From an uncultured virus (IMG/VR IMGVR_UViG_3300009136_000003) (Duplodnaviria; Heunggongvirae; Uroviricota; Caudoviricetes; Crassvirales): a DNA stretch of 64,000 nucleotides. Each line of letters starts with the position of its first letter. The stretch's first letter is position 1. Location of the stretch: the IMG/VR virus record IMGVR_UViG_3300009136_000003. One strand, 5' to 3'. The notes below the pieces were generated by a model. It had not been told where the DNA came from. It searched no databases and saw nothing but the letters and a program-made list of their open reading frames with translations. Shown piece by piece: positions 1-45,852 of the stretch. The position numbers and the translations under genes are program-made.

Positions 1-3000
1 GTTTCTAAGTCTGTTAAAAAAGCAAAAGGTTCTATAAATTTACGACAGTCTTCTAAAGATTTAAAAATAGATATAGAAAAGTATTTTACAAATCCAAAAA
101 CAAGCACGTTTGAAAAGAGAGGTTTTATTGTAAAGGATATTGTAGCAGATATTGCTAAAAACATAGAAAAAAATAAGCAAAAAGAAATTGCAAAACTTTT
201 AGGAGGTGATGTTTCTAAAAATGTAGGAGTAGGTAATACACCTAAAGGAGTTAAAAGCCCCGGTTCACAATCACTTGTTGATTTAATTGCTAAAGTAGCA
301 GCAGAAAAATTAACTAAAGGATTAAATGTAGGAGATGTTTATGCAGTCATAGAAATAAATAGTGAGGTTGAAGTAAAAGAAGATTCTCATCCAAGTTATC
401 CATTTCATATATCTTTAAAAAACGGTAGTAAACCTATATTGCATTTACCAAAAAACAGAGAATCAGGAAGTAAAGTCTTGGTTCAAAAAGGACAAGATGG
501 TAATTACAATCTTGATTATGCAGTTCGTAATGTGTCAGTAGTAGAAGGTCAGTTTAATAATGAAGCTGCATCAACAGCTGTTAAAAAAGGAACTGAAAGA
601 CGAAATGCTAAAAAGAAAAACACACCTCAGTCTCGTAAGCAAATAATAGGAGAGAATGCTGACCTAACGGCACTTAATCTTTCTTATAGCTTAAACTTAG
701 CAAAAGAAATAGAGCGAGTACAAAAACTAAGTTTTAGAGAAAAATTTAATGAAGCGAAGAAAGACAGAGATGTTTTGGAGTACATAAAAATGACCCCACA
801 AGAGGTGAGGTATATGACAGGTTGGGAACGTGGTGTAGATGACAAATGGAGATATGAATTACCTGACGGAAAAGTAACTGTAAGAGAAAAAGGAAAGTTT
901 AAATTATCAGATGTATATGACAGCAAAGGATTATATGACGCATACCCTCAATTAAAAGATATGCCTGTGGATGTTGACATTAGACAACAAGGTGCAGTAA
1001 ATGCTTGGTTTATACCAAGTAGCAAGTCTATAGAGATAAACGCAAAACCTGATTCTAACGTCACTAGCCTTTTAGTTCACGAGATACAACACGCTATTCA
1101 ATTTATTGAAGGGTTTGCTACAGGTGGAAATATGAGGTCTGCATTTGAGGCATACGAAAATACTGTTACCCCTGAAGAGAAAAAAGCAGAGCTAGAATTA
1201 AAGGAAGAGGTTGAAGTATTAAACAATTTAACAACGGTTCTTGAGGTAGGTAGTATTGATTTTGAAGGTATGTCTTTGGACGAGGTATTAAGTTTAGACT
1301 TTATACGAGAAAATTGGGATGCACTAGGACTTGAAAGTAAAGATGATGCCATAGATGTATATGAGTACGTTTATGATAACAATCCTGAAATAATAAGTAA
1401 GTTAAAGACTGATGAATATGGAGATAGTCTTGACTTATCAGGAGCAATGGATGAGGCTTATGAAATAGCAGGGCGTAAAAAAGCCGAGTACTCCGACAAG
1501 TATTCTACGTATGCATTATACCAAAGATTAGCAGGAGAGGTTGAGTCTCGTAATGTTGAGACACGATTTATGATGACAGAAAAGAAAAGAAGAAAAACTC
1601 TTTTGTCAGCAACAGAAGATGTAGCTGCAGAAGACCAAATATTATTATTCCCTGACCAACCTCAGTCTCGTAAGCAGAAAATAGGGAGAACTACAAGACT
1701 AGCTCCTAATGGAAAGCAATCTAACTTAACTGACGTGCAGTATGATGCTGTAAGAACGCCTGCGTTTAAGAAGTGGTTCGGTAATTGGGAGACAGACCCT
1801 GAGAATGCGAGTAAAGTAGTGGACGAGAATGGTGAGCCTAGAGTTGTATGGAGAGGCAGGGACACAAGTAAAGGTGATGTTGGAGATGTAATAGATATTG
1901 GAAAAACCAATGAGGGTGCTTTCTTTGCTGATAATAAAGAGGCTTCCGATTTGTTTATGTCTGAGTTTTTAGGAATTAAAAAAGGTGATTATGAAATAAT
2001 TGAATCGTTTTTAAACATAAGAACCCCGGAAGTATTTGAAGATTTTTGGAATGATTTTATGGGTAATAGAAATTCTAATAAACCTAATTATAAATACGAA
2101 CCAAAAAAAGGTGTTGATGGAGCTATAATAAATGATGACGTTTGGCTACAAGAATCAGAAATAGATTGGAAAGAAGGGCAGTTTGATGAAAATGGTAATC
2201 AATTAGAAGAAGAGGTTATTAAAGAAATCGCTTTAGAAGGCAAGCAATTTATTGTTTTTAAACCTAACCAAATAAAATCAGCCGATGGCAGCAACACTAC
2301 TTTTGACCCAAACAAGCCGTCTATACGTAAGCAACAAGACGACAGCAAAGAGGTTAGTGAAATAGAGGGTGAGATTCAATATTTAGAATCCGAGATTGCA
2401 GACAAGCAAGAGGAAATTGCGGCTGAAAAATCTGATACCAAGGATGACATACAGAAAAAGAAGGATGAGATAGCTAAGGTAAAGAAAAGCAAAAAGTCTC
2501 CTGCCAAAAAAAGAGATTTAATTGAAGATATAAAACAAGAGATTGAAGATATAAAAGAAGACGGACTAGTAAACGTAGAGTATTACATTGAGGAGGTAAA
2601 GGAAGCTAAGAGAGAATTAAAAAAGCAAGAGAAAAAGTTAGCTAAATTAAAAACAAAGCCTGCACCTAAGTCTAAGCCTAAGCCTAAGCCTGCACCTAAG
2701 CCTAAGCCTAAGCCTGCACCTAAGCCTAAAAAATCTAACAATACATATCGTTCATCTTGGTCAGGTAGTTTAGATACATCAATAGAAGTATCTGAAGATT
2801 ATAATCAGATGACCGACCAATATAGAGAGAAAAACAAACAAATAAACCTTGCTAATGGAGAAGATGTAATAACTATAGAAGAGGCTAATAAATTAAAAAT
2901 AGAGCTTCGAGATAATTTAAAGAAAGCAAAATTAAAATTTGAAGAAGCAAAATCTAAGCCTGCACCTAAGCCTGCACCTAAGCCTAAAGCAAAAAAGATT

Positions 3001-6000
3001 TTAGAAGCCATTCCTGAAACAGGTGATGTGACGGCAGAAAACAAGATAACAATTGCAGATAACTTAAGGGCGATAACAAAAGGCGTGAAAACCGCTGTTG
3101 TTTCTTGGATGCGTACAAGTAAGTTCCTAGCACAAGAGATAGGCTCAATGGTTAAGTCCGGTAGGATAACAGTTAAGCAGTCGGCAGCTATACTCAAAAA
3201 GTTTAGTGGTGTCAATATGTTTAACGAGGCTTCTATAGATAGGTTTGTAGATTTTATGGCTCGTGTTATTAATAACGCAGAATATGCAGAGCAGTTATCT
3301 ACCGCAAGAAAAAATATTAAACGAGCTAAGAAAAACATTAGAACTAAGATAGGTAGTGCAGATGCTGTAGCACCTATGCTATCTCAGATTTTTGATGTTA
3401 ACCCATCACTAATACCTGAGTCTGTATGGAAGATTTATACTGACCTAGTTGCTGACTTTGCAGGAAGCGGAGCTGTTATATCCCCTAGTAATGTAGAATC
3501 TGTATCACTAATTGCAGGTGATATTATCGACTCATTAAATGCAGAGTTTTCACAGACTGAAGAGTTAGGAAATAGATACGATGCCTTTGACAAAGTACTA
3601 GACAAGAAGACAGGAGCTGTAGACTACGCTGCTACTATAAAAAAGATGGAGAAGGAAGGTTTGATTACACCGGAGGAACTATCTATAATGTCAAAGTATA
3701 GAACCGATATAGCACCTCCAACTCCTAAGACACCAAAAACAAAGGCTGAGATACAGGCAGAAAAGGATGCTATTATAAAAGACATTAAAGGCTCACCTAC
3801 ATTAAAAATATCTAACATTAATAATAAGTTGGATAGAGCTGTAGCGGATAGGTTTGTTTCTCTGATGGCAACCCCTGAAGTGTTGGAGTCTATGTCATTG
3901 AAAGACTTACAGCAAATTCAAAAGTTAATGGATAACATTAACAATGGATACCTACCTCACCTTGCACAGATACAAGTAGAGAAAATGAGTAGCGTCTTGA
4001 ATTCTAATATATTAACAAGTGCAATACAAGGCAGTAAGCTACTACCTGCGTCTGCTATTTATGGTAGATTAAAAAGTCTAGTAACAAAGAGAGGTGCTAT
4101 TAGTGAGATGATAAGAAGGAATCCTTTGTTTTATATTGACCAAATTTTTGGAGATTTTAAAACTAAAGATATTTTTAACTCTGTATTTAATCAATCAGCT
4201 ATAGCTCAGGAAAGATATCAGGCTGATATTAAAAAGATATTTGGTAGAATTGACAAGGCACAAAACTCTGTAGCTAAAACATACCGTAGAAATCCAAATG
4301 GTTTAGTGAGGTCTAAGTTTAAGCAGATGATTTATTCCATTCAGCTTGAAGCAGAAAGCAACCTTGGTAATCCTGAAGTGAATCAGGCAGGTGCTTATAT
4401 AAAGAAAACTATAGAGGCTATAATGGACGGCAAGACAACATTCACAAAACGTGATGCTGATATGCTTAATGAAATATACAATGAGTTTGAGGTTAATGGT
4501 GAGATAGATATTAATAAGTTGTATGATTCTTTTTCTAAAGTAGAGAAGGCTTCTATAAAAGAAATACAAGACATCAACATTGAGCTTCAAGAGAAGGCAG
4601 TCTTTACAAGTGCAGTTATTCGTGGTGATAGAATGAACCCAAGAAATAATTACACTCACTTAAACGTAATAACAGCAGCCGGTAAAGATAACCTAGCTGC
4701 ACCTTCAGAGGCACAGAAAATATTACAGAGTTTAAGACCTAGCACAAAAGCTAATTCTTTAATTGAAAGAACAGGTAATGTTGCTCCACTAAACTTTGAT
4801 TACTATGCATCTGCATCTAGGGGTGCTAAGGGTGTTCTCTTAGACTTTTATATGACAGAACCTATAAGAACAACTCACAGAACTTTAGACAGGACTAAGG
4901 AGTCTCTTAAAGATGGTTCTAATATGATGCCCGGAAATCAAAGAGAAAAGTTCAACGCTATTAGAGATTCTTTTGATGAGGTAATAGGTAACCTATATGT
5001 AAATGCCTTCACTCAAAACGGATTGGGAGATGCTGCATTAAAGTTTATGAACAGGAATGGATACCGTGCAATACTTGCTAGTAGCACTAGGTGGATAGCC
5101 GAGCTTACATCAAACACAGCGTTTGCTTTAATAACAAACCCAAGGGCGTTTACCATAGGAGCGAAGATAGGCCTTGGTTTCCTAAATAGTGACGCTGCAC
5201 CTAAAGCAATGAAGGTCTTGGGGTCTAAGCAAACCACACGTATATATCCTAGTGATTCTTTATCAGGTAGAATGGTAGACACCAACCTAATGAATCAAGC
5301 TCAGGGTGAAAAGGGAGGTAGAGTTAAGGGTAGATTTAAAAATAAGATGACACAAATTTGGAATCTAACAGGAGCAAAGTATGCAGGTAGTGTAGCTACT
5401 GTGTCTGATGCCTTGATATCTACACCCGATAAGATAGTTATGAGACCAATGTGGTTTGGTAGTTTTAGTGCGGAATTTGAAAAAATAACAGGACAAAAAC
5501 CTGACTTTGATAAGATAGCATCTGAAGACTCAGCATATATGTCAGAGAATGCAGCAGCATTAAAGGATGCCACAACAAAGGCTGATGAGACTTCTGTAAT
5601 GACAGGGTCAACTGCTAATCCTTTTATGGGGATACTCAAAGGACAATCAAAACCTGAAGATGGTTTGATGACCAAAGCATTTAATAACTTCAACACCTTT
5701 ATGACCACGTTCTTAATATACGAATATGTAACTGCTCGTACAGGTATTGTTAATGCAGTAGGTGGAGGTGTCCTAGGAAAGGCTAAGGGAGCACAATTGC
5801 TTGCAGGTTCAGCAACTCGTATGATTACATATACAATGCTAGCGACAGTATTAAGTGAGGCTTTAACAGGACTAGCAGGTGACGAACCTGAAGAGCAAAA
5901 AGCACCCGAAAAACAGCTTGGTCAGGCCATAGCTTCTACAGTTAGTTCTATGATGTTAGGTAGAGACTTTGGTAACGCTACAAAGGCAGTTATAAACTAT

Positions 6001-6699
6001 GGTATCGAAGAATTTAATAAGGAGTTTTTAGATTTTCTAAGAGATGGAGAGTATGACTCTTTTAAGGATGGTATTCAGTATCAGGTAGTTCCTCAAAACA
6101 AAGACGGAAGAGGTAGTGATATAGGTGACTTTATAAAAGCAATGTCAGCAGGTTATAGCCCTTTCATTAAGACTATAGACTTTATGATAGGCAAGGCAAC
6201 TGAAGCTCCTAAAGTAACTGAGGCGGCTAGAAAGAGACAGCAGGATGAGGTTATGATTAGATTACCTTTAGAGGTGTTGGGTAACACAGGTTTAATACCT
6301 CTATATAAGGATGTAAGGAAGATGGTACTTAGAAATCTTTATGGAGAGATGCGTAAGGCTAGTAATGAGTCTGCTAAAAGAAAAGCAAAAGAGTTAGATA
6401 AGTTACAGGGTTACAATAGCAGGAGTGATATGAAAAGGTATGACTACAGATTATGGATGGATACCTTCGGGCCAAACTCAATGGATTGGGATGAGGAGCA
6501 AAGAATAAAAGAGGAGAAGAGAAGATTGAGAGCTGCTAAACAGCGTATCAAAGATGAAGAAAACGGATACACAGGTAGAGGTACTAAGTCCGGATTTGGT
6601 AATAGTGGATTTGGTAATAGCGGATTTGGTAGCGGTGGTTCAAAAAGAAAAACTAAAAAGAAAGGTGGATTTGGTAATAGCGGATTTGGAACGAATTAA
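1..6699 (+). CDS. Giant polyvalent virion/ejection protein, C-terminal part (open from base 1, so 5'-truncated): module A', LPD23-like metallopeptidase cassette, ART-PolyVal-like cassette, coiled coil, PAPK linker, long helical C-terminal region, GFGNS tail
   Basis: Frame +1 is open from base 1 (VSKSVKKAKG...), so the TTG at 439 is not the true start. LPD23-type motifs: TGWERGVDDKWRYE, LYDAYPQL, HEIQHAIQ (1078-1092), YQRLAGEVESRNV. ART-PolyVal-type motifs: RTPAFKKWFGNWE, SKVVDENGEP, FIVFKPNQIKSA. Confidence 0.85.
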   Translation, partial: VSKSVKKAKGSINLRQSSKDLKIDIEKYFTNPKTSTFEKRGFIVKDIVADIAKNIEKNKQKEIAKLLGGDVSKNVGVGNTPKGVKSPGSQSLVDLIAKVAAEKLTKGLNVGDVYAVIEINSEVEVKEDSHPSYPFHISLKNGSKPILHLPKNRESGSKVLVQKGQDGNYNLDYAVRNVSVVEGQFNNEAASTAVKKGTERRNAKKKNTPQSRKQIIGENADLTALNLSYSLNLAKEIERVQKLSFREKFNEAKKDRDVLEYIKMTPQEVRYMTGWERGVDDKWRYELPDGKVTVREKGKFKLSDVYDSKGLYDAYPQLKDMPVDVDIRQQGAVNAWFIPSSKSIEINAKPDSNVTSLLVHEIQHAIQFIEGFATGGNMRSAFEAYENTVTPEEKKAELELKEEVEVLNNLTTVLEVGSIDFEGMSLDEVLSLDFIRENWDALGLESKDDAIDVYEYVYDNNPEIISKLKTDEYGDSLDLSGAMDEAYEIAGRKKAEYSDKYSTYALYQRLAGEVESRNVETRFMMTEKKRRKTLLSATEDVAAEDQILLFPDQPQSRKQKIGRTTRLAPNGKQSNLTDVQYDAVRTPAFKKWFGNWETDPENASKVVDENGEPRVVWRGRDTSKGDVGDVIDIGKTNEGAFFADNKEASDLFMSEFLGIKKGDYEIIESFLNIRTPEVFEDFWNDFMGNRNSNKPNYKYEPKKGVDGAIINDDVWLQESEIDWKEGQFDENGNQLEEEVIKEIALEGKQFIVFKPNQIKSADGSNTTFDPNKPSIRKQQDDSKEVSEIEGEIQYLESEIADKQEEIAAEKSDTKDDIQKKKDEIAKVKKSKKSPAKKRDLIEDIKQEIEDIKEDGLVNVEYYIEEVKEAKRELKKQEKKLAKLKTKPAPKSKPKPKPAPKPKPKPAPKPKKSNNTYRSSWSGSLDTSIEVSEDYNQMTDQYREKNKQINLANGEDVITIEEANKLKIELRDNLKKAKLKFEEAKSKPAPKPAPKPKAKKILEAIPETGDVTAENKITIADNLRAITKGVKTAVVSWMRTSKFLAQEIGSMVKSGRITVKQSAAILKKFSGVNMFNEASIDRFVDFMARVINNAEYAEQLSTARKNIKRAKKNIRTKIGSADAVAPMLSQIFDVNPSLIPESVWKIYTDLVADFAGSGAVISPSNVESVSLIAGDIIDSLNAEFSQTEELGNRYDAFDKVLDKKTGAVDYAATIKKMEKEGLITPEELSIMSKYRTDIAPPTPKTPKTKAEIQAEKDAIIKDIKGSPTLKISNINNKLDRAVADRFVSLMATPEVLESMSLKDLQQIQKLMDNINNGYLPHLAQIQVEKMSSVLNSNILTSAIQGSKLLPASAIYGRLKSLVTKRGAISEMIRRNPLFYIDQIFGDFKTKDIFNSVFNQSAIAQERYQADIKKIFGRIDKAQNSVAKTYRRNPNGLVRSKFKQMIYSIQLEAESNLGNPEVNQAGAYIKKTIEAIMDGKTTFTKRDADMLNEIYNEFEVNGEIDINKLYDSFSKVEKASIKEIQDINIELQEKAVFTSAVIRGDRMNPRNNYTHLNVITAAGKDNLAAPSEAQKILQSLRPSTKANSLIERTGNVAPLNFDYYASASRGAKGVLLDFYMTEPIRTTHRTLDRTKESLKDGSNMMPGNQREKFNAIRDSFDEVIGNLYVNAFTQNGLGDAALKFMNRNGYRAILASSTRWIAELTSNTAFALITNPRAFTIGAKIGLGFLNSDAAPKAMKVLGSKQTTRIYPSDSLSGRMVDTNLMNQAQGEKGGRVKGRFKNKMTQIWNLTGAKYAGSVATVSDALISTPDKIVMRPMWFGSFSAEFEKITGQKPDFDKIASEDSAYMSENAAALKDATTKADETSVMTGSTANPFMGILKGQSKPEDGLMTKAFNNFNTFMTTFLIYEYVTARTGIVNAVGGGVLGKAKGAQLLAGSATRMITYTMLATVLSEALTGLAGDEPEEQKAPEKQLGQAIASTVSSMMLGRDFGNATKAVINYGIEEFNKEFLDFLRDGEYDSFKDGIQYQVVPQNKDGRGSDIGDFIKAMSAGYSPFIKTIDFMIGKATEAPKVTEAARKRQQDEVMIRLPLEVLGNTGLIPLYKDVRKMVLRNLYGEMRKASNESAKRKAKELDKLQGYNSRSDMKRYDYRLWMDTFGPNSMDWDEEQRIKEEKRRLRAAKQRIKDEENGYTGRGTKSGFGNSGFGNSGFGSGGSKRKTKKKGGFGNSGFGTN
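625..641 (+). repeat. Cassette-boundary motif CCTCAGTCTCGTAAGCA (PQSRKQ), copy 1
   Basis: Exact 17-mer also at 1660, 62781 and 63231, always in the giant protein's reading frame. Confidence 0.95.
1659..2429 (+). repeat. 771-bp direct repeat of 63230-64000 (offset 61571 bp)
   Basis: Sequences match by eye, and the ORF track gives identical antisense ORFs at 1662..1910 and 63233..63481. The upstream flanks are unrelated. Confidence 0.95.
1660..1676 (+). repeat. Cassette-boundary motif (PQSRKQ), copy 2
   Basis: Exact 17-mer; identity with the window's 3' end starts here. Confidence 0.95.
2656..2730 (+). repeat. Coding tandem repeat AAGCCT/AAGCCTGCACCT giving a KPAPKPKP linker (second patch about 2956-2988)
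   Basis: Visible 6- and 12-bp units. Confidence 0.9.
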
Positions 6700-9293: not shown

Positions 9294-10756
9294 AATGTTT
9301 TTTTAAAGTGGCTTAACGTATAGTTCTTTTTTTTGCTTACTGCTTCGTATATTTCTTTCTCAATACCTCCCTCAGAAAATATCCAATAGACATCTGACTC
9401 TAGCCTCTCTTTGGTTGTCATCCTGTCTCGGCTCTGCCAATAGCTTGTGGCACTAAAGTCTATGTTGTAATACACTAATGCCTCTGCCTTGCGTAACGAG
9501 ATACCTTCTCTGCCTGATACTATCTGCAACGCTATAGACTTATTAGTGTCCTCAAAGACACTAAGCTCGGTGCATAAACTATCTCCATATACTTTCTTTA
9601 GGGCGTTAAGTTCCTCCTTAAACTTATAGAAGATACCTATTTTAGCCAACCCGAAGTTGTCATAAATATACTCTGCTTTCGACAGGTCTAAGATAGTGGA
9701 ATTTCCTGACTCAAACTTGACAGTTCCTGAATACATTTGATGCAGCTTCATCATCAGCTTTACCGGGGTGTCTGCTAGTATAACCTCATCCTTGCCTTCG
9801 ATAACTAATTTCTTTTTTAGCTGAGAAGTCAACCTGTATGTTAACTTTGACATCGGAACGTACAACGTATGCTCCCTTGTGTCAACCTTAAACCCTGCCT
9901 CCTTCTGAGAGTAGCTTATTGTGTGTGGCTTCATAGCCTCGGTTATTGAGTCCCTACCTTTGGAGTAATCCTTAATCATCAGCCCATTAATCTTACGCTC
10001 AGTAACATCCACATAAGTATCGCAGAACCTGTAAAAGTTTTTGAATGATGTGAAAGGATTTCTCTTGATGCCATAAACTTGATGGTAAAACTGACTGTAT
10101 GACTCAGGAGTTGGAGTTCCCGACAGGAGTATCACATAGGGGTTATGCTTTTTAATTATCTCCTTCACCTGCTTTGCTCTATTACTTGGCTTAGGAAATG
10201 CCCCCATACTATGAGCCTCGTCAAGCACAATTAAATCGAACCTCTCAAGAGACTCCACCTTGTGTATTGACTCGTAGTTTATAACCTCCATCTTGTAGTT
10301 AGGCATAAAAAGATTATAGTCACTCTCAATACTAGATATTGCTTTCTTCTTGGTCACAAACAGAACGTGTTTGCAGTTTAGTTTCTGTGCCACAGACAGG
10401 CTAGTGAAAGTCTTTCCTGTTCTAACCTCCATCGCTAGGTAAACAAACCCATCAACAACAATCATCTTAGCTGCCTGTGTGCTAATAGACTCCTGATAGG
10501 GTCTTAGTTTTATAGTTGTCTTCTTTTTATTCATTAGTTCCTTATAAAATTCAACACTTCTGTTTATCTTATCCAATACCTCCTTGTCAATAGTATACTT
10601 TGGTATTGTGATTGTCGTTGCCTTCTTACCTCTGCCTATTTTTTCTTCCCTAGACTGTGTACATATCTCCTGAAGCAGTAAGCATTTTTTATACATCGTA
10701 GCGTCATTGTGAAAGGGCAGTCTTTCAATAATATCCTTACTTTCCATTACTGTCAA
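9290..10756 (-). CDS. SF2 (SNF2/ResIII-like) helicase
   Basis: LRPYQ, MEVRTGKT, INYES, DEAH, LSGTP, GREGISL, QSRDR. Confidence 0.9.
   Translation of the reverse strand: MTVMESKDIIERLPFHNDATMYKKCLLLQEICTQSREEKIGRGKKATTITIPKYTIDKEVLDKINRSVEFYKELMNKKKTTIKLRPYQESISTQAAKMIVVDGFVYLAMEVRTGKTFTSLSVAQKLNCKHVLFVTKKKAISSIESDYNLFMPNYKMEVINYESIHKVESLERFDLIVLDEAHSMGAFPKPSNRAKQVKEIIKKHNPYVILLSGTPTPESYSQFYHQVYGIKRNPFTSFKNFYRFCDTYVDVTERKINGLMIKDYSKGRDSITEAMKPHTISYSQKEAGFKVDTREHTLYVPMSKLTYRLTSQLKKKLVIEGKDEVILADTPVKLMMKLHQMYSGTVKFESGNSTILDLSKAEYIYDNFGLAKIGIFYKFKEELNALKKVYGDSLCTELSVFEDTNKSIALQIVSGREGISLRKAEALVYYNIDFSATSYWQSRDRMTTKERLESDVYWIFSEGGIEKEIYEAVSKKKNYTLSHFKKTL
9543..9564. repeat. Dispersed palindrome TTAGTGTCCTCAAAGACACTAA, inside the helicase CDS
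   Basis: Variant of the GTGTCYTCAAGGACAC family. Confidence 0.7.
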
Positions 10757-17429: not shown

Positions 17430-17460
17430 CAAATATAATACTAAAAAGTGACTTACACAA
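17430..17460 (-). promoter_or_regulatory. Bacteroidota promoter (-33 TTG, -7 TATATTTG)
   Basis: CAAATATA at 17430-17437, with CAA 20 bp further on. Confidence 0.75.
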
Positions 17461-17496: not shown

Positions 17497-17516
17497 TAGT
17501 GTCTTCAAGGACACTA
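17497..17516. repeat. Dispersed palindrome TAGTGTCTTCAAGGACACTA
   Basis: One of 8 copies. Confidence 0.9.
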
Positions 17517-17518
17517 GG

Positions 17519-17614
17519 TTTACGGTGATTTTCGGTAATTTACGGTGATTTTCGGTAATTTACGGTAGTAAGTTAACTGCACTTAACTTCACTTAACTGC
17601 ACTTAACTTCACTT
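17519..17614. repeat. Two adjacent 10-bp-period tandem arrays: TTT(A/T)CGGT(G/A)A x5 and TTAACT(G/T)CAC x4
   Basis: Read directly; intergenic. Confidence 0.9.
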
Positions 17615-18041: not shown

Positions 18042-18227
18042 CTAATCTCTTGGATTTGGAATTATCTTTAATATATGTCTATGGGTATACATTTCATCTA
18101 AACTGTATCCTTCTTTACTTTTCAGTATGTAGTTGATAAAGTTGTCGCAATGTTTCTTAGACTCAAAGTCCTTGGTGATTATCCAATCTGTTCCAAAGTC
18201 TGTTTTAAATTGTAGTGTCGTTCTCAT
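18042..18227 (-). CDS. Hypothetical early protein
   Basis: ORF track; its start overlaps the HNH stop. Confidence 0.65.
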   Translation of the reverse strand: MRTTLQFKTDFGTDWIITKDFESKKHCDNFINYILKSKEGYSLDEMYTHRHILKIIPNPRD

Positions 18228-18730
18228 CTGTTTATTTTTTTTAATTCGTTTTGATATGCTTGTGATGCTTCTTTTTCGTTAACAAAACAACCTAAATGTT
18301 TTGATTTTCCATTTATATTTATAGATGCCCTCCATTTAGTTCGCCCTTTTTTTAAAAAAACGCCTGTATATTTTGAAGTTCCTTTTCTATCTTTTGATAA
18401 ATTTTTTCTATGTGTTATTACTTGTAAGTTGTAAAGTTTATTATTTAATTTATTAGTATCTATATGGTCTACAACCATTGTGTGTCCACAAGGTTTATGG
18501 TTTAAGAATGCAAAACCCATTAATTGATTAATAGTTCTTGTGTATCTTTTTTTATTTATATAGATACCTATTTGATAATATCCATTAGCACCAATTGGTT
18601 TTTTTAATATTCTTTCTTTCCCATACTTTAAACTTCTTGCATTTCCTAAGTTGCTTACTTGGTAACTTTCAAATTCAGGTATGGTTTTCCATACCTCTAT
18701 ACCTAATCTACTTAATAGTTTTGCTCTCAT
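18224..18730 (-). mobile_element. Free-standing NUMOD4-HNH-AP2 homing endonuclease gene
   Basis: EVWKTIP..YQVSNLGNARS (NUMOD4), VDHIDTNKLNNKLYNLQ (HNH), SKYTGV..KWRASININGKSKHLGCF..EKEASQAY (AP2). Confidence 0.9.
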
Positions 18731-19050: not shown

Positions 19051-19101
19051 TCCGTTTCATCCTTTCGGAATCATCAGCCGAGATACACATCTCGATACGG
19101 A
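19051..19101 (-). ncRNA. Hammerhead ribozyme, type III (copy 1)
   Basis: Minus strand: UCCG-UA^-UCGAGAU GUGU AUCUCGG-CUGAUGA-UUCC GAAA GGAU-GAAACGGA. The core is complete; the stem II closing pair is U.U. Predicted cut between 19096 and 19095. Confidence 0.85.
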
Positions 19102-19105
19102 GGGA

Positions 19106-19124
19106 TAGTGTCCTTGAGGACACC
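19106..19124. repeat. Dispersed palindrome TAGTGTCCTTGAGGACACC (inverted copy)
   Basis: Immediately 5' of hammerhead 1 on the minus strand. Confidence 0.9.
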
Positions 19125-19137
19125 ACCCCTTTAAGAT

Positions 19138-20274
19138 TTATGCTTGTCTTAGCACCTCATCTTCCTTGAGCCAACTACCACAGGAGGCACAATGATAATT
19201 TGAAAAGCCATCGAAATCTACGTCATTGTAGCAATTTGTACACGTTGGTGACTCTATTAATGGGAAGTCGTTGTCTTGAATATAAGACTCAAAAGCTTCT
19301 TTCCTGTTGTCGGATATGTCAAACAAGTTTGGTTTTATTTGCTCTCTAGTGTATGTTGGCTTAGTGTATGCGTAGCTTCCATAGTTTCGGTAAGTTTTTA
19401 TTCTTGGTCTCTGTTGCTTGTAAGACTTATGAAGTTTTGTGTGATGGTCAATTCCTATCGGATTGAAGTACACCCAACAGCTAATCATACTGCCATCAGA
19501 TAGCTTTATGTCTATCATCTCACGCTTGTACCATTGTGGATGTCCCTCTAGTCGGTCAAGGTTTCCTAGCACTTGGTCGCTAACTTTGAATACATCAACA
19601 TCAACGTTGTGTCCAATTCCTTTACGATTGACTAGGTAAGGTAAGCCTTCAACAACTAGAGGGTATTTGTCTTTAGTTTCGCCTTTACCAACATACCTAG
19701 ACTTGGTCAGATAGTTGCTGTAGTTGTTGTAACCTTTTTTAAGTGTACCATATACTGCAACCACGTTCTCTTGTAATACGTTCGACTTTGAATACCATAC
19801 ACCATCCCTGTATGTAAACAACTCCCTGTTGTATACTTGAAATGATTTTGTTTTGGTGTTTACAGAAACAAACCTACAGAAGTTCGGAGCATTTACATCC
19901 ATTACTTTTAGATGGTTTTTCCAATCTCTCCTGTTGATAGTTCCTAACTCAATTGCTAACGCTTTTGAATCAGTCATCTCTGCGTTACCATACCCCGATA
20001 CAGTACCATTCATCATTAACAGTTCGTCAGTTTTTTGCCCGCATACAAACGGATGCATATTTGACTTGTTAACTGCACCTATCGTTGCATACCTAAAGTG
20101 TGCAATGAATGGCCTCTCTGTTAATAGTATCTTGTATTGCTTAGACTCGAAGTACTCGACATCAAAAGTGTCAAGCCATACGATGCCTAATCCGTGTGGA
20201 TTTATTTTAGCGGATGCTTCCACTATGTTTTCAGAGATTACACTCTTTTTTTGTTTTACGATAATTACGCACAT
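19138..20274 (-). CDS. Class II glutamine amidotransferase fused to a gamma-glutamylcyclotransferase (GGCT/AIG2-like) domain and a C-terminal Zn ribbon
   Basis: N-terminal MC nucleophile, NPHGLG, HFRYAT, HPF, NG, TDS; then VYGTLKKG...LDRLEGHP; then CTNC...CASC. Confidence 0.85.
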   Translation of the reverse strand: MCVIIVKQKKSVISENIVEASAKINPHGLGIVWLDTFDVEYFESKQYKILLTERPFIAHFRYATIGAVNKSNMHPFVCGQKTDELLMMNGTVSGYGNAEMTDSKALAIELGTINRRDWKNHLKVMDVNAPNFCRFVSVNTKTKSFQVYNRELFTYRDGVWYSKSNVLQENVVAVYGTLKKGYNNYSNYLTKSRYVGKGETKDKYPLVVEGLPYLVNRKGIGHNVDVDVFKVSDQVLGNLDRLEGHPQWYKREMIDIKLSDGSMISCWVYFNPIGIDHHTKLHKSYKQQRPRIKTYRNYGSYAYTKPTYTREQIKPNLFDISDNRKEAFESYIQDNDFPLIESPTCTNCYNDVDFDGFSNYHCASCGSWLKEDEVLRQA

Positions 20275-20305: not shown

Positions 20306-20337
20306 CAAATATATGACTAAAATTAGACATACACAAA
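20306..20337 (-). promoter_or_regulatory. Bacteroidota promoter TTTG-N20-TATATTTG
   Basis: CAAATATA at 20306-20313 and CAAA at 20334-20337. Confidence 0.85.
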
Positions 20338-20399: not shown

Positions 20400-20639
20400 T
20401 TAATTTTCATCTAATGGATAAATATCCTCCCAACCATCTACTGAATTAGGATGGGCATATACTCTGTCCTCCTTTGGTTTTTGTTGCTCATACTCCATAA
20501 CCCAAAAGTCCTGATTATATTCTTCTCCCCATCTTAGGATACATTCGTCCGCTTCTTTCTGTGCCTCTTCAAAGGTTTTAAATCCATCCTCTTGGTCTAT
20601 TGAATGACCGAATCTGTCTACTGTTACTACTTTGTACAT
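20400..20639 (-). CDS. Hypothetical acidic early protein
   Basis: ORF track. Confidence 0.7.
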   Translation of the reverse strand: MYKVVTVDRFGHSIDQEDGFKTFEEAQKEADECILRWGEEYNQDFWVMEYEQQKPKEDRVYAHPNSVDGWEDIYPLDEN

Positions 20640-20642
20640 ATT

Positions 20643-20756
20643 TTAAATATTAAAGATTAAACTTGTTAGCACCCTGCCAACAAAATAAATAACTGCGAAA
20701 TACAAGAACATTACTTGCATTTTCTTAAAGGCTTTGCCTAGTTTCTTTGCGTCCAT
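20643..20756 (-). CDS. Small membrane peptide (37 aa, MDAKKLGKAF...)
   Basis: Translated by hand; directly downstream of hammerhead 2. Confidence 0.55.
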   Translation of the reverse strand: MDAKKLGKAFKKMQVMFLYFAVIYFVGRVLTSLIFNI

Positions 20757-20778: not shown

Positions 20779-20829
20779 TCCGTTTCGTCTTTATAGACTC
20801 ATCAGCATAGGCAAATACCTATGGACGGA
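20779..20829 (-). ncRNA. Hammerhead ribozyme, type III (copy 2)
   Basis: Minus strand: UCCG-UC^-CAUAGGU AUUU GCCUAUG-CUGAUGA-GUCU AUAA AGAC-GAAACGGA. Canonical core and GUC triplet; predicted cut between 20824 and 20823. Confidence 0.93.
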
Positions 20830-20837
20830 TTGGTACT

Positions 20838-20861
20838 GAGAGTGTCTTCAAGGACACTCTC
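20838..20861. repeat. Dispersed palindrome GAGAGTGTCTTCAAGGACACTCTC
   Basis: Extended stem, immediately 5' of hammerhead 2 on the minus strand. Confidence 0.9.
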
Positions 20862-20878
20862 GCTTCACCTAAGATACT

Positions 20879-21841
20879 TTAGGCTTCATTGTAACCATTA
20901 CGCCTTAAGTCGGCATCTAATGGCATATTGCGGTATCTAGCATCACCGTAATCGCTGTATTGTTTGTGTGGCTTCACATAGTTAACAATAGCCCTGTTCA
21001 CCTTTCCTGTGGTAAGAAATTTTCTAAACGACTTCGCTAAACTCATAACGTTATCAACTTTTACCATATCACCCTCATACATAGATTTAACGATTGGCAA
21101 ACATCGTTTCAATAACGTGTTATGGCTTCCGTTAGGATTGTTCACCGCAAAGTCAACAATCGTATACATCAACTCGTATCTTCTCATCATCTGTTTAACA
21201 GATTGAAATCGTGAAATCAATCTAAATTCAATGCAATTCCTTTTACTCAAAATCGCCTTGTATCTTGTACCTACAGGATTAACTTCAAGCCCTAAGTCAC
21301 AGCTAGAATACTTGTTAGATAATCTCTTCCTAAACAATGCATAAACAATTCCTATAAAGGGTTTTAATGCATCTCTAAGTTCATCACCATCCATTCCATC
21401 AACAGCTATAGTTATATGCCCTCCACAGCTGTGGTTACTAGGGCTATATGCATCATCGATAATCTGTTTTGCATCGTGCATCATCGAAAATACCTTGTTA
21501 CGCCATTTGCCCGCAGGCAGTAAGGGTAAAATGTGGGTAACAGCCTCATATCCACAACTTGAATCCGTTTCAAATCCTGCAAATAATGGATATTCTCTTA
21601 CGGCTAGTCGATGTAAATTTGTCTTTTCAACTTCCATTCCTATAGTAAATTTTGACTTAAAATCACCATCGCTACATAAACTAAAATTCTTCATTTGCAC
21701 TTTTTTAAGTTGTGCAATGTCTGTGTTTTTAGCACCCTTGTGATGTTCCTTAAAGCCTAGTCTAGCTGTTGAATGGTAGCTAGAAACGGTGTCTCTTCCC
21801 CTCTCGTTTGTGTTTTCGTACTTGATTCCTGTGGTTTTCAT
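20879..21841 (-). CDS. Putative COOH-NH2 ligase/amidoligase (Amidoligase_2-like)
   Basis: GMEVE, ETDSS, YEAVT, SCGGHITI and IEFRL motifs; lies next to the GATase-GGCT gene. Confidence 0.75.
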   Translation of the reverse strand: MKTTGIKYENTNERGRDTVSSYHSTARLGFKEHHKGAKNTDIAQLKKVQMKNFSLCSDGDFKSKFTIGMEVEKTNLHRLAVREYPLFAGFETDSSCGYEAVTHILPLLPAGKWRNKVFSMMHDAKQIIDDAYSPSNHSCGGHITIAVDGMDGDELRDALKPFIGIVYALFRKRLSNKYSSCDLGLEVNPVGTRYKAILSKRNCIEFRLISRFQSVKQMMRRYELMYTIVDFAVNNPNGSHNTLLKRCLPIVKSMYEGDMVKVDNVMSLAKSFRKFLTTGKVNRAIVNYVKPHKQYSDYGDARYRNMPLDADLRRNGYNEA

Positions 21842-21876: not shown

Positions 21877-21922
21877 TAGGGTAATGGTTTCGCTCCATTC
21901 TTAGGCTATCTATAGCACCCTA
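21877..21922 (-). ncRNA. Candidate tRNA-like three-way-junction RNA
   Basis: UAGGGU/ACCCUA outer stem, a GCUA-UAGA-UAGC arm, and AAUGG-AGCGAAA-CCAUU (5-bp stem, 7-nt loop). Confidence 0.5.
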
Positions 21923-21925
21923 TTT

Positions 21926-21945
21926 TAGTGTCCTCAAGGACACTA
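21926..21945. repeat. Dispersed palindrome TAGTGTCCTCAAGGACACTA, overlapping the stop codon of 21943..22596
   Basis: Read directly. Confidence 0.9.
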
Positions 21946-22596
21946 TTGCTGTAATGTTGCAATCATAAATTTAGCCGCTTCAATCACTTCCTCGTTATTG
22001 TTTGTGGTAATAACTTCGCCGCTTGCAAGCACTCTAATCGCTACATTTTTGCCTGCAGGATTCTTAAACGAAAATGTTAATATAGTCGGTTCATCCTGTA
22101 CAGGTGATTCAATTTCAGCCGATTCAATCGCTTCGTTTTCTGTAGCTTCAATCTCTTCGCTTGTTGCATCTTCGCTGTGTTCTAGGTTATCTAAATCAAT
22201 AGTCTTAGCAAATTTCAACAGATTTGCAATTGATATACTAGCTTCATTCACTTCCTCACATTTGATTTTAAATGCATCTACAATTCTAGCATCTAATTTA
22301 GATGCCTTAATTACTTTGTAGAAAAATGATTTTTGCCATCCAAAAACTTTAAGTCCTAACTCAGCTTTCGTCCATTGTATACCCTCTTCAGCAAATAACT
22401 CTTTACCCTCTTCAGATTCAAAAAACTCGATTGATTTAAGTATTAATTTACCCATCTTCATCGTACCTGCAAATTTCGATTTGCTCGCATTCTGAATTTC
22501 TGTTTGAACTCCTCTAATCGCTGTAAGTCCTAAAGCATTCTGTACCTGTGGTAAACCTAAAAATGCTGTTTCGATTGTTAATAATTGTTCACTCAT
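21943..22596 (-). CDS. First early-region protein, function unknown
   Basis: 217-aa ORF with an acidic C-terminal region. Confidence 0.8.
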   Translation of the reverse strand: MSEQLLTIETAFLGLPQVQNALGLTAIRGVQTEIQNASKSKFAGTMKMGKLILKSIEFFESEEGKELFAEEGIQWTKAELGLKVFGWQKSFFYKVIKASKLDARIVDAFKIKCEEVNEASISIANLLKFAKTIDLDNLEHSEDATSEEIEATENEAIESAEIESPVQDEPTILTFSFKNPAGKNVAIRVLASGEVITTNNNEEVIEAAKFMIATLQQ

Positions 22597-22642
22597 AATA
22601 AATAATGCCTGTGTTTAGCGGAAAGGACTTTATCCTGTTAGC

Positions 22643-22684
22643 TCTAGGTATAAGAATCGAACTTATATTTCAACCATTCCTAGA
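22643..22684 (-). ncRNA. Candidate tRNA minihelix mimic with a canonical T-loop
   Basis: UCUAGG-AAUGGUUGAAA-UAUAAG-UUCGAUU-CUUAUA-CCUAGA: 6+6 bp stack capped by GUUCGAUUC. Confidence 0.55.
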
Positions 22685-23136
22685 ATCGATATTACTACAG
22701 CTACAGGGTATAATTTATATTGTTTCAGCATCCTAGTGCTTAATGGTTTTATCAGTATCCCAATTGAATTCCTTTGAAACTATCCGTTTGCAAGGGTAAA
22801 ATTATTCTTATATTTCACGTAATATCTTTTTTTCGATAGAATCATTAAAGTAACACTTCAAGTAGTGCGAGCATACTCTCTGTAAGTCAGTTACTTATAA
22901 ATCAAAAATCTCAGAATGTCAATGAACTTTAGCTCTCGCACCCTGTAAAGATAGTGTTTTTAATGTGATTTCTTCGTCTATTTATAATAAAATATTAATA
23001 TATCTTTTTATGGGCTGTATTCCCTAGGGATTGTTTAGGGTATCAATCTATAGGGCTGAGGTGATGCAAAGCCTCTTTGCTGTTAATAGTCTTTAATTCA
23101 CTACTTGCTGTGCAATGTGAGTGCTTACCTGTACAA

Positions 23137-45820: not shown

Positions 45821-45852
45821 AGGATGGTGTCTTCAAGGACACCATCCTTTTT
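45821..45852 (+). terminator. Capsid-gene terminator built on the dispersed palindrome
   Basis: AGGATGGTGTCT-TCAA-GGACACCATCCT-TTTT. Confidence 0.85.

Follow-up and report, generated by a model that had tools for sequence, protein, structure and literature searches.

Cutting of a phage early transcript at structured intergenic sites, as proposed here, is known from T7, whose early mRNA is processed by RNase III, and from P1 C4 and P4 CI, which are phage RNAs processed by RNase P. Only host enzymes do the cutting in those systems, whereas in the phage clade described here a self-cleaving RNA alternates with presumed host-enzyme substrates in one slot. Clustered hammerheads around variable prophage and phage genes are described in the available text of Perreault 2011 (PMC3088659), which reports activity of tandem copies in vitro and in vivo as well as a halovirus HF2 5' end mapped beside the cut site, and which proposes processing into operon- or gene-length mRNAs. 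A 2019 review (PMC6765202, available sections) calls the job of bacterial and phage hammerheads undefined, and the initial annotation of this DNA, which had described phage hammerheads as known and their role as unresolved, agrees with both sources. In the synthetic RiboJ element, according to the available text of PMC8942793, a hammerhead cut strips upstream sequence and gives a uniform mRNA start, as proposed here; RiboJ has its hairpin downstream, whereas the phage element is natural and has an extra hairpin upstream. Theta ribozymes of gut phages (PMC10879173, available text) are likewise small self-cleaving phage RNAs tied to tRNA biology, but they have an HDV-like fold and lie beside full tRNAs, whereas the RNA studied here is a hammerhead between protein genes.

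The window (the whole 64,000-nt stretch of uncultured virus DNA that was analysed) resembles the clusters of PMC3088659, as far as its available text goes, in having two sense-strand intergenic hammerheads that flank genes, several per transcript between variable genes being described there. Unlike that text, the clade examined here combines a fixed slot, an upstream hairpin, a near-constant leader and swaps with mini-tRNA-like elements, although the supplementary alignments of that paper may hold aquatic metagenome members. A literature search with most subscription papers and supplements outside its scope returned no paper on hammerheads or on the 16-bp palindrome described below in this phage clade. 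The ribozyme itself is ordinary; the new aspect is a clade-wide cassette with interchangeable occupants, and its comparison across relatives amounts to a natural experiment on the purpose of phage hammerheads.

The hammerhead at 20829-20779 and its gene setting

The window genome is podovirus-like and encodes GroEL, a terminase, a portal and a capsid protein. Of the 85 phage records matched by this capsid protein, 68 are Flavobacterium Elemovirus records, 15 are Cellulophaga phages, and the other two are Maribacter phage Panino and an uncultured spring phage; from these matches to Bacteroidetes phages we infer a Bacteroidetes host. The minus-strand block from about 22600 downward holds small genes without assignment, followed by recombination and replication genes, and is called the early region here on account of this layout (Table 1). 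A sigma-70 promoter scan gave matches at chance level (36 versus 31.7). A pair of -33/-7 boxes, whose consensus we take to be that of Bacteroidetes-type promoters, precedes the amidotransferase-like gene, and another such match ends at 17430. There is no tRNA gene in the window. Elsewhere in it, an optional mobile gene for a NUMOD4/HNH endonuclease (18224-18730, minus strand) is absent in a close relative's contig (joint 18219-18723), two short tandem duplications of about 20 nt each (17520-17610, minus strand) precede the palindrome at 17499 and are the place where contigs of three runs skip 69 nt, and a 2086-aa protein with ART-PolyVal and LPD23 domains, i.e., a phage polyvalent protein, is encoded at 439-6699 (plus strand).

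Table 1. Features of the window around the hammerhead, with strand and basis of assignment.
Position	Strand	Feature	Basis
19051..19101 (Rfam match 19103-19049)	-	Second type III hammerhead, GUA triplet, U-U at 10.1/11.1, cut after 19096	Rfam, model
19102..19129	-	Palindromic hairpin (12 bp) that carries the palindrome reversed and adjoins the second hammerhead	
19138..20274	-	378-aa glutamine amidotransferase-like / gamma-glutamyl cyclotransferase gene, precedes the second hammerhead	
20306..20336	-	Bacteroidetes-type promoter match, -33/-7 boxes, before the amidotransferase gene	Box consensus
20400..20639	-	79-aa acidic ORF, no family	
20643..20756	-	37-aa ORF, one hydrophobic segment	
20757..20778	-	A/U-rich leader, ribozyme to start codon	
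20779..20829	-	Type III hammerhead ribozyme, GUC triplet, G-C at 10.1/11.1	Pattern, fold, Rfam, covariation in relatives
20823..20824	-	Predicted scissile bond after C17 (20824); downstream product from 20823 with 5'-OH	Pattern; chemistry per PMC6765202 (available sections)
20838..20861	-	Hairpin of 9 bp with the 16-bp palindrome (20842-20857) as its core, separated from the ribozyme by 8 nt on its upstream side	
20879..21841	-	320-aa gene, glutamine-synthetase/YbdK-like fold, putative amidoligase	Predicted structure
21877..21922	-	Three-way element preceding the amidoligase-like gene, with a closing stem, a short hairpin and a 5-bp arm that has a 7-nt loop	z -1.71, weak
21928..21943		Palindrome copy; others at 9546, 17499, 19108, 20376, 20842, 23139, 45827	Window motif count
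21943..22596	-	First early gene, 217 aa, helix-turn-helix-like segment near residues 77-99; candidate palindrome binder	
22642..22685	-	Mini-tRNA-like element ahead of the first early gene; acceptor-like stem, T-arm and D-loop-like GG, anticodon arm absent	

The RNA read from 20829 to 20779 folds into a 5-bp stem III, C17 at 20824, a 6-bp stem I with a 6-nt loop, the core CUGAUGA, a 4-bp stem II with a 4-nt loop, and GAAA, such that three stems surround the core, loops cap stems I and II, and stem III is open. At the sequence level, loop 1 has the form U...YN and loop 2 ends in A, which we take to be the tertiary-contact motif of hammerheads. All positions of the type III core, as listed in the available text of PMC3088659, are present (C3-U4-G5-A6-N7-G8-A9, G12-A13-A14, A15.1-U16.1, and H17). 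A strict pattern search on both strands of the 64 kb returned this site as its sole match, and the pattern appeared in none of 30 third-order Markov simulations of the window. The Rfam model Hammerhead_3 (RF00008, clan CL00010), which has the same full core, three stems and open stem III, aligns over its full length (1-54 of 54) with 44.2 bits (E = 3.4e-7 in a 10-kb scan and 2.2e-6 in the whole window); compared with this family, the phage subtype is compact (51 nt, with the short loops given above). The default Rfam scan of the window was empty because this score lies below the gathering score of 48.5, which is a library cut-off and not a structural feature, and which one relative's hammerhead exceeds (49.2). 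A model built from 108 aligned sequences, both window copies included, and run with filters off detected only those two copies in the window. The 116-nt stretch comprising the ribozyme and the upstream hairpins is more stable than expected (z = -4.36, with 0 of 200 shuffles equally stable), as is the 51-nt ribozyme by itself (z = -2.31, 4 of 200).

Position 20829 lies 50 nt past the stop of the 320-aa gene (20879), and the cut at 20824/20823 lies 67 nt before the ATG of the 37-aa ORF. The claims of the initial annotation that a type III hammerhead with a GUC site is present on the minus strand, between these two genes, and that it should create a new 5' end at 20823 are thus borne out by the strict pattern and by RF00008. 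The element is confirmed as a complete, canonical type III hammerhead, and judging from its sequence it very probably cleaves itself. RNA-type runs (X1-X3) gave only short contigs, with 6-13% of words, and none over 20806-21072; one X1 contig equals 20399-20736, ends before the ribozyme and is uninformative on transcript ends. The downstream ORF had been described as a membrane peptide, in line with its single hydrophobic 19-residue stretch (mean hydropathy 1.95). For the upstream gene, the earlier name amidoligase stands in part: Pfam and PHROG profiles gave no match, and a predicted structure (pLDDT 89.6) found only glutamine synthetase (GS), GmaS and YbdK among all listed Foldseek matches (E 4.5e-5 to 1.5e-3, TM about 0.3), which suggests a putative amidoligase (COOH-NH2 ligase) at the level of the fold.

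Relatives, the upstream hairpin and the slot behind the amidoligase-like gene

A single-protein query against viral contigs gave no match, but an alignment of 45 homologues of the amidoligase-like gene (the anchor) retrieved relatives, of which 161 loci were taken (80 of 154 viral, 80 of 507 metagenome, and one GenBank record). The hammerhead pattern is present in 138 and the palindrome in 155 of them. Clustering of the anchor protein at 90% left 84 representatives, 71 with a hammerhead, and every one of the 145 pattern-defined hammerheads in these representatives has sense orientation (type III in 129 cases, type I in 15 and type II in one). When the core sequence was searched in 1.12 Mb with pairing not required, 131 sense and 3 antisense matches were found, and the three inner pairs of stem II are formed in 130 of the former versus none of the latter. 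Among 105 distinct sequences, compensatory changes occur in 13 of 15 pairs, with covariation of 0.73 versus at most 0.13 in slid controls; copies entered this alignment only if they paired and shared one loop length (106 of 123 distinct copies), and its 96% figure is inflated by the selection for pairing. Loop 1 is U-initial with a penultimate pyrimidine in 127 of the 129 type III copies, and loop 2 is A-ended in all of them. A U-U at 10.1/11.1, a variant already given in the available text of Perreault 2011 (PMC3088659), is found in one third of the type III copies, and these 39 copies have GUA (35), GUU (3) or GUC (1) at the cleavage site; G-C at the same position accompanies 71 of 72 GUC copies. 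The association of the U-U pair with non-GUC sites may reflect common descent or functional coupling.

An anchor-independent pattern scan of viral contigs, which overlaps the first set, yielded at least 127 distinct copies in at least 140 loci, and among the copies listed stem I is fully paired in 123, a stable upstream fold is present in 102, and the palindrome lies within 60 nt in only 37. In 25 whole virus records, the model gave 46 type III matches, distributed over 21 records and never farther than 8 kb from the anchor gene; four records have none. BLASTN of the ribozyme against phage records gave only a chance match. In one relative (L022:2827-2886), the palindrome itself is the stem III hairpin of a type I hammerhead.

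The same ribozyme subtype is present in a cultured phage. In Elemovirus MT497078.1 (48 of 59.7 kb scanned), a single model match of 40.2 bits corresponds to an unannotated GUA type III hammerhead (L292:28914-28966, minus strand). Its predicted cut falls 62 nt ahead of the gene that opens the small-gene block on the minus strand, and the ribozyme lies downstream of promoter-like boxes and lacks the palindrome. All 68 matching Elemovirus records, which are phages of Flavobacterium sp. BAL314, share the 161-nt hammerhead stretch at 99% identity or more, and the purpose of the ribozyme is therefore testable in a cultured phage-host pair. In MW202828.1, of which 59.6 of 60.9 kb were covered, there are 14 palindromes and not a single hammerhead; Maribacter phage Panino lacks both. 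The upstream palindromic hairpin, the clade-wide conservation, the mini-tRNA-like element in the same slot and the cultured relative go beyond the initial annotation.

Both window ribozymes are preceded by a hairpin with the 16-bp palindrome at its core. The 40 nt upstream fold at -6 kcal/mol or lower in 123 of 129 type III copies (median -15.7 versus -6.1 in shuffled sequences). Where a hammerhead follows the palindrome (n = 90), the first flanking pair is G-U in 34 and A-C in 2 cases, versus 47 and 31 where none follows (n = 344); the flanks thus lengthen the palindrome into a G-U-containing RNA stem only where a hammerhead follows. In the near-identical strain L081, the palindrome copy before the ribozyme is no longer symmetric as DNA and its pairing is kept, and other hammerhead copies have an unrelated hairpin upstream instead; therefore, the ribozyme seems to need a hairpin and not the palindrome sequence.

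We then scored the slot behind the anchor gene in 81 of the 84 representatives, namely those with at least 200 nt past the anchor stop, the other three being dropped. It is occupied by 61 strict and 3 relaxed hammerheads, 8 T-arm (mini-tRNA-like) elements and 5 copies of a third hairpin motif, and the rest comprise 3 slots in which the script recognised nothing and one that was unscorable; a hammerhead or another structured element therefore fills 77 of 81. The distance from the cut to the next ATG has a median of 67 nt, equal to the window value, and lies between 56 and 76 nt in 106 of 129 copies. The 145 ORFs that follow hammerheads belong to 78 BLAST families, and in strain L081, whose amidoligase-like protein and ribozyme are both identical to those of the window, the leader is followed directly by another gene.

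The mini-tRNA-like pattern (an acceptor-like stem on a 5-bp T-arm with a TTCGA loop and a D-loop-like GG) was found 24 times in sense and twice in antisense orientation, in 21 of 84 relatives, some of these matches being false or full tRNAs. Twenty hand-picked copies can be aligned with invariant G, TTCGA and TC, and ARAGORN called none of the slot T-arm copies a tRNA. A plain minimum-free-energy fold does not favour this structure for the window copy, of which L081 has a compensated version. Such elements also lie between early genes, often directly past a palindrome (L071, L078, L139, L052 and others). In the third occupant (L015:8950-9010, L018, L112, L127, and L136), a conserved G-rich motif and an A-run come after a long hairpin; it has 9 sense and one antisense match in the 84 relatives, with four copies in L127 and none in the window, and may represent a so far undescribed processing element. 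Neither RAGATH motifs nor any other Rfam family reached threshold for the palindrome, the mini-tRNA-like element or the third motif (9 and 4 loci scanned), and the Rfam scan gave two sub-threshold tmRNA-end matches in L078. The three-way element before the anchor gene, retained in the two closest relatives only (L081 and L084), is a possible degenerate tRNA-like element. It was also compared by eye with the consensus of pistol and twister, and both were rejected since the catalytic linker is absent and Rfam gave no such match.

Proposed function and alternative explanations

We propose that an active, cis-cleaving type III hammerhead serves as fixed punctuation of the early polycistronic mRNA. 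It would cut constitutively at 20824/20823 after transcription, and the upstream product (the amidoligase-like mRNA) would then end in the 9-bp hairpin, about 14 nt and a 2',3'-cyclic phosphate, an ending that should slow 3' exonucleases. The downstream product would begin with a 5'-OH right on the stem I hairpin, followed by the A/U-rich leader and the ATG, and this product should resist 5'-monophosphate-dependent decay. Any gene behind the cut would receive the same leader, as with the engineered RiboJ insulator. In relatives, the same end might be produced by type I hammerheads or by mini-tRNAs presumably cut by host RNase P and RNase Z, and the hairpin core may derive from a 16-bp DNA palindrome that has a separate role of its own. 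Stabilisation of mRNA by a 5'-OH is known from work on E. coli RNase E, and its extension to Bacteroidetes is an assumption. A single slot with a structured occupant in nearly all genomes, constant spacing and variable genes points to RNA processing as the selected function, and, on the basis of these sequence comparisons, we assign a probability of roughly 0.6 to constitutive punctuation of the early polycistron into hairpin-ended units with 5'-OH leaders as its purpose. What counts against it is that MW202828.1, Panino and four of the 25 whole records manage without a type III copy. A further point against it is the predicted weakness of stem III within its flanking sequence, where its probability exceeds 0.5 in just 23 of 129 type III copies; in the window, a competing fold that joins the cut site to the downstream AUG is 2.3 kcal/mol lower in energy. 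The promoter matches at 20306 and 17430 suggest that some units gain their own 5' ends without a cut.

A broader version of this reading, which we hold tentatively and at somewhat less than even odds, is that each early gene slot may be a socket made up of a dual-use palindrome (a DNA site for the first early protein that serves as an RNA hairpin where one is required) and an interchangeable cutter (type III or type I hammerhead, mini-tRNA processed by host RNase P/Z, or third motif), through which new genes would gain a standard, stable leader. If so, the interchange of occupants would be the first natural evidence for the purpose of phage hammerheads, and the third motif could be a processing element of a kind not described before.

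Cleavage of glmS mRNA leads to its decay by RNase J1, and in the same way the cut might be a down-regulator that uncouples and destabilises the downstream small genes and creates a step-down of expression along the operon. Short ORFs (up to 100 aa) with a hydrophobic segment, which may need a low dose, make up 30 of the 62 ORFs after anchor-slot hammerheads, and PMC6765202, in the sections available, suggests differing stabilities or translation efficiencies with no direction given. However, the new 5' end sits directly on a 6-bp hairpin followed by the constant A/U-rich leader, and the Elemovirus copy lies ahead of the first of all early genes, a position in which a step-down would hardly be useful. 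We regard this explanation as unlikely.

PeSL cassettes of T4-type phages promote gene swapping, and the palindrome and hammerhead could similarly form a repeated DNA unit for gene exchange in which cutting is of little consequence. Gene content does switch exactly at these junctions, and the presence of a GUA/U-U version in the slot of close relatives (L082-L084), where the window has GUC/G-C, suggests exchange between copies. However, the stems vary freely while pairing and catalytic core are kept, which needs selection on RNA function, and copies within one genome are too divergent to be good recombination tracts; swapping as the main purpose appears improbable.

The segment between the two window cuts (20823-19096, 1728 nt) would have a 5'-OH and a cyclic phosphate, both of them substrate chemistry for ligation to a circular mRNA by an RtcB-type ligase or by the ribozymes (PMC6765202, available sections), and many relatives have two to four hammerheads in series. 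This is nevertheless very unlikely, given that a single type III copy is present in 12 of the 21 whole records with any, that the scanned ORFs of the window included no recognisable RNA ligase, that the slot may hold a mini-tRNA with other end chemistry, and that spliced or circular tandem products were sought and not found according to the available text of Perreault 2011 (PMC3088659).

The least probable alternative is a conditional switch in which an alternative fold hides the cut site and the start codon until a signal arrives. In the window, 8 bp can form between the cut site and the region of the downstream AUG (duplex energy -11.7 kcal/mol), but this pairing is absent in the near-identical strain L081 and is not conserved among the 129 type III copies (mean duplex -3.07 for own versus -2.94 for shuffled pairs), for which reason riboswitch-like AUG sequestration was rejected; no loop of these copies has an aptamer-sized insert.

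The palindrome as a possible DNA site

The palindrome occurs at 8 sites in the window versus 0.23 expected by chance, and 7 to 17 times per genome in 24 of the 25 whole records, being dense in the early block and sparse elsewhere. It is present in both orientations, and 53 of 484 copies lie inside long ORFs. Such a distribution would fit a DNA site of a dimeric protein, and the palindrome probably doubles as a site for the first early protein, whose gene is present in all 61 representatives with enough upstream DNA. Two or more positions of this protein's helix-turn-helix-like segment deviate from the consensus in all six genomes whose palindrome is a variant, versus 2 of 72 others. These six genomes need five changes on a quick tree, and the inference of covariation between protein and palindrome is weakened because five of the six sit on the longest branches. 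Searches of the PDB with the protein gave no match by sequence and no significant match by structure, with ParB-DNA structures ranking 2-5 (E 0.24-0.36), and its language-model features are DUF3102-like. It is possible that the protein and the palindrome are a ParB/KorB-like pair, for which they are candidates. A host chromosomal motif was considered as an origin of the palindrome and rejected: there are at least 128 matches in bacterial genomes, and the 80 listed are mostly single and in unrelated taxa, with clusters on two phage-sized contigs of Bacteroidota bins. Just past the capsid gene of the window (45822-45847, plus strand), the palindrome forms an 11-bp stem followed by a T-run, which resembles an intrinsic terminator.
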